A stretch of 64,000 nt of DNA from Candidatus Sabulitectum sp. (GCA_029938555.1 JAOZUR010000007.1:1581-65580), one strand, 5' to 3'. Shown: positions 18,261 through 19,952, counted from the first letter of the stretch. The notes: generated by a model from the letters alone, not told the origin. Numbers and translations: made by a program.

Positions 18261-19952
18261 CTAGGCCGGTTTTACCGCCTTGAACGCTTCCTCTGGAGTA
18301 CTATCAGGATTGATAGAGAGCCAATCAAGAATATGCCATGCACCCTTTTCAGTAACACCATTCTGTGCACACCATACAATAGTATCTTTGATACCAGTTT
18401 CCTTAAGAGCTTTTTTCCAATCTTTGCCTGCTCTTCTCGAGCCACGCATACGATCAGCAAGAAGACTTGCAAGAGGTTTAGGTTGATAATCAATTGTAGC
18501 AAGAAGATCATCATAAAGATCGCAAAGTTCAAGATTAAGAAGCCTGTCCATCAAGTGATCACTGAGACCTAATTGCCTATATATTAAACGTCTTTCCCAT
18601 GGTTTTGGGGGAAGAAGTTTTTCAAGTCTTGGGAATGTATCTGCAGGGATTGGTTGCGGTGGAAGGTCTGTATCAGGATACATCCTGTCTGCTCCTGGAA
18701 GGATTCTTTCAAAATCGGTATTTCCGCCGGCAAGTGCTTGTCTTGTTTCCGGAGGTACCCCTTGGAAAGCTTCACTTATTCTAATACAAATTTCTTTTAC
18801 TGTTGTTTCAAGGTCTTCTTCGGGACCTGCAAAAACCAAGGCAGTATCCTCAGGAGAAATGTTCATATCAGTTCTGAGAATGTCTGTGGCTTCCATAAGA
18901 ACAGGATTGTATTCAAGGCAGGCAATTACTCGGATTCGACCTCGAAGTTCATCAAGAAAAGAGAGGCCAGGTTGTGTTGGCCACTTAATGAAATTACTGA
19001 ATTCGGGAAGAATCATTACTGCTGCTTTGTGATTCTTTTTTTCAAGAGAATCAGGAGCAAAACCTTCACCTGCTGTTTGTATCTTGTTCAATAGTGTAAA
19101 TTCTGCTTTGAAACTGTTTTCAGTTAGATCTGATTCTTTCAGTTGCCCGCGAAGGTCAAGCAGAGCTTTTTGCCTGTAAGCTTCGATCCTTGAAAGTGCC
19201 TCGATGTAACTAATTTTGGCTACACCTTTGATTTCAATCCTGGTACCGCCTCTAATTGATACATTCACATCTTGCCTGACTGAACCTATTCCGCGCCTTA
19301 CAAGGTGTGTTGAACGCATTGTTTCACCGATAAGTTTTGCAGCAATAGCCATCTCGAGAGGGGTGTACAGCTCTGGCGCAGTTACCGGTTCAACCAGTGG
19401 AATTGATAATCTGTCAGTTCTGTAAACAACATGATGCCCAATATCTGATACTTCACGACATGCATCTTCTTCCATACTCATCTGTATGAAGTGAAGTTCT
19501 CTGCCAAGAAAAGGAATAACTCCATTGACTCCTACAATCGCTGTTCTTTGAAAACCAGTTGGTATAGAGCCGTCAAGATATTGTTTGCGGGTAATATGTA
19601 ATTCGTCAACTAATGACATATTGAACATCATTGCCAGTTGAAGAGCAGTGTTTATCGCTTCTGGATTAGTTTGAAATGGAGGAGTATCATCCATTTCGTA
19701 AGTGCATACAGAATCGTTATATAGAAGATAATGCACCTGTTTTTTTGTTTTAAACTCCATCAAGGCAGTTCCATCATATTCGCCAAACTCGCTCAGTGTT
19801 GGGCGCATGTGGCGTAAAATTTCCTGATGATGTTCATCATTTCTTATTGTTGTTGAACACCGGCAGAACAATTTTCCCGCAGTGGCAAGTTGTTGATGGG
19901 TCTCCAGACCTCCCTTGAAGCCCAGTTCACGCAGTTCTGTGTAATCCTGCAA
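18261..19952 (-). CDS. GatE-type (archaeal-type) Glu-tRNA(Gln) amidotransferase subunit E homolog
   Basis: GLETHQQL..GKLFCRCS, RPTLSEFG, DDTPPF..NPEA, RKQYLDGSIPTGFQRT, MEEDACR, RTDRLSIPLVE, RGIGSVRQDVNVSIRGGTRIEIKGV and GVPPETRQAL.GGNT.F.R.LPG..RMYPDTD all match GatE. Bacterial GatB has GLEVH..L and RCDANVS instead. An insertion domain lies between the cradle and helical parts, as in GatE. Confidence 0.7.
   Translation of the reverse strand: MQDYTELRELGFKGGLETHQQLATAGKLFCRCSTTIRNDEHHQEILRHMRPTLSEFGEYDGTALMEFKTKKQVHYLLYNDSVCTYEMDDTPPFQTNPEAINTALQLAMMFNMSLVDELHITRKQYLDGSIPTGFQRTAIVGVNGVIPFLGRELHFIQMSMEEDACREVSDIGHHVVYRTDRLSIPLVEPVTAPELYTPLEMAIAAKLIGETMRSTHLVRRGIGSVRQDVNVSIRGGTRIEIKGVAKISYIEALSRIEAYRQKALLDLRGQLKESDLTENSFKAEFTLLNKIQTAGEGFAPDSLEKKNHKAAVMILPEFSNFIKWPTQPGLSFLDELRGRIRVIACLEYNPVLMEATDILRTDMNISPEDTALVFAGPEEDLETTVKEICIRISEAFQGVPPETRQALAGGNTDFERILPGADRMYPDTDLPPQPIPADTFPRLEKLLPPKPWERRLIYRQLGLSDHLMDRLLNLELCDLYDDLLATIDYQPKPLASLLADRMRGSRRAGKDWKKALKETGIKDTIVWCAQNGVTEKGAWHILDWLSINPDSTPEEAFKAVKPA

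Follow-up and report, generated by a model that had tools for sequence, protein, structure and literature searches.

A tail-less GatE encoded apart from GatD in Fermentibacterales that also possess glutaminyl-tRNA synthetase

The tRNA-dependent amidotransferase GatDE is treated in reviews as confined to archaea and as an archaeal signature (PMC2330236, PMC9499178). It is known from M. thermautotrophicus (structure 2D6F, with tRNA(Gln)) and P. abyssi (1ZQ1), archaea having no glutaminyl-tRNA synthetase (GlnRS) (PMC9499178), and it selects tRNA(Gln) by a YqeY-like extension, which touches the tRNA's D-loop, and by the pair A1-U72 (PMC2330236). The cradle and helical domains of bacterial GatB (S. 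aureus 2DF4 and 3IP4, T. maritima 3AL0) are paralogous to those of GatE, and its kinase/transamidase chemistry proceeds in the same two steps. Deinococcus, Thermus and Bdellovibrio keep GatCAB, of which GatB is a subunit, beside both GlnRS and asparaginyl-tRNA synthetase (AsnRS) (PMC4206432). Here a bacterial gatE gene is described from a stretch of 64,000 nucleotides, hereafter called the window, of Candidatus Sabulitectum sp. (GCA_029938555.1 JAOZUR010000007.1:1581-65580), an uncultured bacterium of the phylum Fermentibacterota (Hyd24-12), order Fermentibacterales. The 563 amino acid product belongs to GatE and not to GatB, and on balance it appears to be the E subunit of a functional but accessory GatDE amidotransferase, the D subunit of which is encoded elsewhere in the genome.

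The locus shares with archaeal GatDE the protein family, the domain order (cradle, insertion resembling that of aspartyl-tRNA synthetase (AspRS), helical domain) and the motifs, and the same genome encodes a cognate GatD with asparaginase catalytic motifs. Unlike the archaeal system, it is found in a bacterium with GlnRS, it has no YqeY-like tail, the tRNA(Gln) has U1-A72 instead of A1-U72, the glutamyl-tRNA synthetase (GluRS), a bacterial one, has a residue of the discriminating type where T. thermophilus has R358, and the enzyme can be dispensed with, as its loss in sister genera shows. GatB differs from the GatE described here in lacking the AspRS-like insertion, in having GatA and GatC as partners and in retaining a tail domain. 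A clade of bacterial gatE-gatD operons (Ignavibacteriota, Bacteroidota, Acidobacteriota, Myxococcota, Zixibacteria and others) is 45-52 % identical in GatE and 60-66 % in GatD, and there, as here, GlnRS and/or GatCAB always occurred alongside GatDE in the genomes checked. The GatE proteins of the operon clade are mostly of 620-660 amino acids with a GatB_Yqey tail and an adjacent gatD, whereas the present form has lost the tail, has gatE and gatD apart from each other and branches from a long stem (0.68). As in Deinococcus, Thermus and Bdellovibrio, both direct synthetases are accompanied by a tRNA-dependent amidotransferase. In those bacteria, however, it is GatCAB, which serves tRNA-dependent asparagine synthesis in the absence of AsnA and AsnB; in the present genome it is GatDE, and AsnB is encoded.

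The genome carrying the window, G000, is a metagenome-assembled genome (MAG) of 3.03 Mb in 151 contigs, 93 % complete and with 3 % estimated contamination, placed close to Candidatus Sabulitectum (85 % identity). The gene and the domains of its product are located in the window as follows.

18261-19952, minus strand: gatE, encoding a tail-less bacterial GatE of 563 amino acids; stop codon at 18261-18263 (TIGR00134 above cut-off, AlphaFold2 model, Z 34 to 2D6F)
19959-19964, minus strand: Shine-Dalgarno-like AAAGGA, read directly, 6 nt ahead of the TTG start
19137-19952, minus strand: first part of the cradle (kinase/transamidase) domain, residues 1-272, with E17, H19, E161-E162-D163, R226, D228, N230, E240 and K242 invariant
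18753-19136, minus strand: AspRS-like insertion domain, residues 273-400 approximately, placed by the match of the model to AspRS insertion domains; it sets GatE apart from GatB
18642-18752, minus strand: cradle domain resumed, residues 401-437, with PETRQAL...RMYPDTD (alignment, invariant columns)
18264-18641, minus strand: helical domain, residues 438-563, the last of the protein (helices 439-560, predicted local distance difference test (pLDDT) score >90)

The open frame of 563 codons starts with TTG at 19952, and the length of 563 amino acids is common to most of the GatE homologues of the same genus. The initial annotation had recognised GatE rather than GatB from motifs, and this was confirmed with family models: the protein scored 377 bits with NCBIfam TIGR00134 (gatE_arch, cut-off 319.55), as expected of a GatE equivalog, and 437.8 bits with NF003107 (GatE), slightly below the cut-off of 456. 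The score with Pfam GatB_N was 150.7 bits, Pfam detecting the catalytic GatB/GatE domain alone. GatB models gave merely 104-109 bits against cut-offs of 315-338 (TIGR00133, 104 against 314.8), and neither gatA nor gatB was found in G000 at its completeness of 93 %. The best sequence matches among solved structures were the GatE chains of 2D6F and 1ZQ1 (E ~1e-85). When aligned to these archaeal chains, the motifs quoted in the initial annotation were all present: GLETHQQL, VRQDVNVSIRGGTRIEIKGV and PETRQAL..GNTDFERILPG..RMYPDTD. The invariant residues listed above refer to an alignment of 59 GatE sequences, in which P400, E402, T403, R404, R423 and Y425-D429 of the second cradle part were likewise invariant.

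An AlphaFold2 model of GatE, built with 59 homologues (pLDDT 86, predicted template modelling score 0.85), superposed on GatE of 2D6F with Z 34.0 over 498 residues and on that of 1ZQ1 with Z 30.8, compared with Z values of about 27 for GatB chains. The inserted domain that had been noticed between the cradle and helical parts corresponds to residues 279-398 of the model, which matched AspRS insertion domains (Z 7-8.5). The suspected lack of the long C-terminal YqeY-like tail was borne out as well. The hidden Markov model match covered the model no further than position 562 of 630, the structural model ended opposite approximately residue 411 of S. aureus GatB, which is the end of the GatB helical domain, and no match to GatB_Yqey (PF02637) or PF09424 was found in GatE or anywhere in G000. 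The tail domain is thus absent and the protein stops at the end of the helical domain. A YqeY or tail protein acting in trans was also considered, and none was found in the search of the G000 genome.

No gatD lies beside gatE, as had been noted initially, nor elsewhere in the 64-kb window. A canonical full-length gatD is present on another contig (G000:C121:29604-30989), 11 nt after rpoN and followed by a gene of the adenosine kinase family. Its product scored 476-480 bits in the profile search of G000, against GatD equivalog cut-offs of 310-324, and 386 bits against P. abyssi GatD; the asparaginase motifs GTGGTIASR, HGTDT and RKMH are intact and the GatD-specific N-terminal domain is kept. 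Throughout the tail-less clade gatD is located between rpoN and the adenosine kinase gene, and in G027, a genome in one contig, 456 kb separate it from gatE. Such unlinked genes were seen solely in the tail-less Fermentibacterales clade. Separation of the two genes by one inversion was considered and found inconsistent with the observed strands. The suggestion that gatE might be a lone half of a GatDE system does not hold, since gatD co-occurs with it, has been lost with it and has the same phylogeny. The presence of a canonical gatD, together with the failure to find gatCAB, also speaks against the other early proposal, that of a GatE-fold enzyme recruited for another reaction and acting alone.

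G000 encodes GlnRS (744.6 bits), so the archaeal situation, in which GlnRS is missing and GatDE is the only route to Gln-tRNA(Gln), does not apply. AsnRS (573 bits) and AsnB (400.5 bits) are also encoded, and AsnA was not found in the search of G000. An Asp-tRNA(Asn)-directed role that would compensate for missing asparagine synthesis was therefore rejected: with AsnRS and AsnB present, tRNA-dependent synthesis of asparagine is not needed. The single GluRS is of the bacterial type and has an arginine at the position of T. thermophilus R358. An arginine there is said, from work of Sekine et al. in 2001, to mark a discriminating GluRS, a rule that is not absolute. The single AspRS (G000:C20:24471-25814, corresponding to L109:1498-2841) is of the short archaeal type and scored 527 bits with the model NF003483 ('aspartate--tRNA(Asn) ligase'; cut-off, 353). 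U1-A72 and G73 are found in both of the tRNA(Gln) genes, not the A1-U72 of archaeal GatDE substrates, and among the four tRNAs compared U1-A72 occurred only in tRNA(Gln), with G1-C72 in tRNA(Glu), tRNA(Asp) and tRNA(Asn). As side observations, glnS and asnB are close together at G000:C107:6549-11080, glnS and gltX are direct neighbours in the sister family (for example G027:C1:1577413-1580474), and a tRNA-Sec (UCA) gene is among the 40 tRNA genes found in G000. It had been proposed that finding a canonical gatD and no gatCAB would make this simply a transferred but ordinary GatDE. Both findings were made, but the presence of GlnRS and AsnRS, the discriminating-type arginine of GluRS, the U1-A72 pair, the lost tail and the four genera that do without the enzyme are not those of an ordinary system.

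Forty relatives were searched, of which 34 belong to the same order, giving 35 genomes of the order with G000. The gatE frame was intact in 18 of the 19 genomes of the genus and in all 9 of the sister family, and gatD followed the same pattern. Both genes were present in g1, g2, g4, g8-g12 and g16, and both were absent from G020, G022, G023 and G024, which represent four sister genera and are 94-95 % complete; the absence there indicates that GatDE is dispensable. Three genomes were discordant, all of them fragmentary. The search for GlnRS was positive in 34 of the 35 genomes, G012 (68 % complete) being the exception, and in all of the approximately 30 that have GatDE; GatB was found in none of the 35. 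The archaeal-type AspRS is the sole AspRS of G000 and of all 34 relatives, including the genera without GatDE. The arginine of GluRS was kept in every sequence reaching that position, and the proline of the AspRS L1 loop in all but G031, again including the four genera. Covariation of either residue with the presence of GatDE was looked for in the sister genera and none was seen; the loss of GatDE has left no visible mark on these synthetases.

Both GatE and GatD are under strong purifying selection. Among gatE genes of the genus, synonymous substitutions (dS) are saturated and the nonsynonymous distance (dN) is 0.09-0.19, giving a dN/dS ratio of about 0.1 or less. The cradle domain evolves most slowly (dN 0.03-0.08 within the genus); the insertion domain and the last 50 residues evolve faster, yet are constrained. 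Saturated dS with low dN argues that gatE is not decaying.

Relatives of gatE are encoded in at least 579 bacterial species genomes, and a search of a protein collection with GatE gave at least 8000 matches at E <1e-30. Outside the tail-less clade the proteins are mostly of 620-660 amino acids, most of them with GatB_Yqey, and gatE is usually followed immediately by gatD. A literature search found no paper on GatDE of bacteria, and the NCBI pipeline already annotates bacterial members as GatE; the present locus contributes a form without tail and with unlinked genes, the joint loss of both genes in sister genera, the common chromosomal slot described below and the count of redundancy. In 40 GatDE-bearing genomes of other phyla GlnRS was present in 33, the remaining 7 all had GatB, and 16 had all three enzymes. 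GatDE is thus the sole route to Gln-tRNA in none of these 40 and in none of the approximately 30 of this order. An enrichment of archaeal-type AspRS in the genomes of other phyla was considered and discarded, since 27 of the 40 gave matches of 275-330 bits and all 7 of those sampled were AsnRS.

Trees of GatE and GatD were built without named canonical archaeal GatE sequences and have no archaeal root. The tail-less GatE proteins of Fermentibacterales form one clade (Shimodaira-Hasegawa-like approximate likelihood ratio support 100), as do the corresponding GatD proteins (support 99), on stem branches of 0.68 and 0.22, respectively, the GatE stem being three times longer. According to the GatE tree the tail-less form is older than the split of the two families. 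The full-length pair of G025 grouped with Acidobacteriota and the pair of G019 with a Bacteroidota-like set, in each case in both trees. Monophyly of the Fermentibacterales GatE proteins was rejected by approximately unbiased tests (p 0.0012 and 0.0001, LG+G4, groups named after the tree had been viewed). The mirrored trees imply that D and E travel and evolve together, and Fermentibacterales appear, from these trees, to hold at least three separately acquired GatDE lineages. Neighbours of GatE in the ESM Atlas were mostly archaeal clusters, which is uninformative on the direction of transfer.

Three GatE sequences labelled as Thermoplasmata or Thermoplasmatota archaeon (P0068, P0073 and P0093) fell into one clade with a Bacteroidetes-labelled protein, amid bacterial sequences, and one such 'Thermoplasmata' record is a contig of 5.16 Mb, a considerable size for that group. 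The labels are doubtful: they may be in error, or a real archaeal branch may stand beside bacterial ones. In a Krumholzibacteriota MAG, gatE and gatD occur in one open frame of 1116 codons (L094:6001-9321). The frame may represent a natural fusion of GatE with GatD, but an indel error is just as probable, because the assembly looks long-read based.

The neighbours of gatE in the window are the following.

15740-18247, minus strand: hybrid sensor kinase (5TM-LYT, PAS, HisKA, HATPase and receiver domains), 13 nt downstream of gatE
15345-15743, minus strand: queF, last gene of the gatE unit, with a 4-nt overlap with the stop of the kinase gene
9449-12342, plus strand: histidine kinase and sigma-54 enhancer-binding response regulator, bordering on the left the conserved slot in which gatE lies
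20153-21718, plus strand: hpf and hprK, divergent from gatE, the right edge of the slot

As initially described, gatE heads a minus-strand unit with the hybrid kinase and queF, and the bacterial setting is genuine. The gene and the hybrid kinase are probably co-transcribed. Of 12 loci fetched from the genus, 11 had the two in this order, which the sister family does not show. Gene order with queF and the kinase is conserved only within the genus, and the link between gatE and queF looks incidental. In the comparison of slots (window 9449-21718 with L184, L196, L197 and L199), the Fermentibacteraceae backbone consisted of an unknown open reading frame, a histidine kinase, the sigma-54 activator, the slot, hpf and hprK, and then ptsH-ptsI. 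The slot of the window (12343-20152, 7.8 kb) contains queC-E-D, folE2 and ogt in one orientation and, on the opposite strand, queF, the hybrid kinase and gatE. In G019, from a sister genus, it contains gatE-gatD, and the activator of the window is 53 % identical to the one upstream of that pair, its best match in the genome. In G022 and G023, both from genera without gatE and gatD, the slot is empty (approximately 200-350 bp). In G020 it is occupied by a different gene. No regulatory RNA was found with Rfam at E up to 0.1 between 14 and 24 kb of the window, and the 200-nt leader of gatE had no match to the -24/-12 consensus of sigma-54 promoters. A 108-codon frame at 19927-20253 (minus strand) runs across the start of gatE and the leader of hpf; it matched no family and probably does not represent a gene.

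The interpretation of gatE as the E subunit of a functional but accessory GatDE amidotransferase is considered a little better than evenly likely. Family membership, fold, the intact motifs of both subunits, purifying selection, the joint occurrence, loss and phylogeny of D and E and the redundancy with GlnRS are established; what the enzyme acts on, its assembly as a D-E complex and its physiological role are inferred. By homology, GatD, an asparaginase-type amidase encoded about half a megabase from gatE after rpoN, would hydrolyse glutamine or asparagine, and the ammonia would move to the cradle site of GatE, where glutamate on tRNA(Gln) would be phosphorylated with ATP and then amidated to glutamine. 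Since GlnRS is present in G000, the role would be accessory: a backup route to Gln-tRNA(Gln), or the correction of mischarged Glu-tRNA(Gln). With the D-loop-reading tail lost, the choice of tRNA would have to rest on the acceptor end and the AspRS-like insertion domain, and the acceptor-end cue may be U1-A72 of tRNA(Gln), as opposed to G1-C72 of tRNA(Glu), tRNA(Asp) and tRNA(Asn). Several points weigh against this interpretation. The discriminating-type arginine is found in GluRS of every relative, suggesting that little Glu-tRNA(Gln) may be made, and four sister genera live without GatDE with GluRS and AspRS visibly unchanged. Archaeal GatDE reads A1-U72 and, by its tail, the D-loop (PMC2330236), whereas the present system has U1-A72 and a GatE without tail. 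The literature search found no biochemical data for any bacterial GatDE.

The main rival explanation, which is regarded as unlikely, is that the GatDE chemistry was kept and the substrate changed, for example to Asp-tRNA(Asn) formed by the single AspRS of archaeal type, or to a special or conditional tRNA. Loss of the tail, which enforces D-loop discrimination, would then have relaxed or shifted the choice of tRNA. Such a change would fit with GatDE never being the sole Gln-tRNA route in the 40 and approximately 30 genomes, and with GatCAB not being found in G000. The only AspRS of the order, archaeal in type with its high NF003483 score and L1-loop proline, would fit as well, but the identical type persists unchanged in the four genera without GatDE, and the apparent counterparts sampled in other phyla all proved to be AsnRS. 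Moreover, tRNA(Asn) has G1-C72, unlike tRNA(Gln), and AsnRS and AsnB make a tRNA-dependent route to asparagine unnecessary.

It is improbable that GatE of the tail-less clade works without GatD, as a stand-alone tRNA-dependent kinase/amidase using free ammonia, with gatD an ordinary asparaginase/glutaminase gene of the rpoN operon. The unlinking of the genes in this clade alone, by 456 kb in G027, and the longer stem branch of GatE than of GatD would be in agreement with such independence. The two genes nevertheless co-occur, were co-lost in four genera and share their tree topology, and GatD retains its specific N-terminal domain and passes the GatD equivalog cut-offs, beyond those for asparaginases.

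Very little probability is given to a decaying relic, that is, a transferred archaeal-type operon in the course of being lost, with truncation of the tail as the first step. This explanation would draw on the lost tail, the redundancy with GlnRS and the dispensability of GatDE in four sister genera. It is largely refuted by the intact frames in the genus and the sister family, the saturated synonymous sites with low dN, the invariance of every catalytic motif and a tail-less form that predates the split of the two families. An artefact of assembly or binning, with archaeal DNA in a bacterial bin, has a negligible probability and is refuted by the conserved synteny: although G000 is a 151-contig MAG with some contamination and some close homologues are labelled 'Thermoplasmata archaeon', gatE is internal to a contig of 64 kb, flanked by bacterial hpf-hprK-ptsHI and the sigma-54 activator in an arrangement recurring in more than 20 genomes, the one-contig G027 has both gatE and gatD, and the 5.16-Mb 'Thermoplasmata' record belongs to a group that includes a Bacteroidetes-labelled member.

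A wider proposal, put forward tentatively and with less than even confidence, is that GatDE in bacteria may be not a primary Gln-tRNA pathway but a horizontally mobile accessory module with a role of its own, of which the GatE of Fermentibacterales would be a natural 'minimal' form, functioning with neither the tail that reads the D-loop nor an operon shared with GatD. Candidate roles for such a module are a conditional route linked to nitrogen or stress, a corrector of mischarged tRNA and an enzyme for a different aminoacyl-tRNA. The view of GatDE as an archaeal signature has been used in arguments on the last universal common ancestor and on how tRNA(Gln) and its enzymes evolved together (PMC2330236, PMC9499178). 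As GatDE is redundant with GlnRS or GatCAB in every genome checked, its function in bacteria is a directly testable question. The tail-less, unlinked GatE is a natural deletion experiment on the choice of tRNA by tRNA-dependent amidotransferases, and the sister genera with and without GatDE at the same chromosomal slot provide a clean comparative system.

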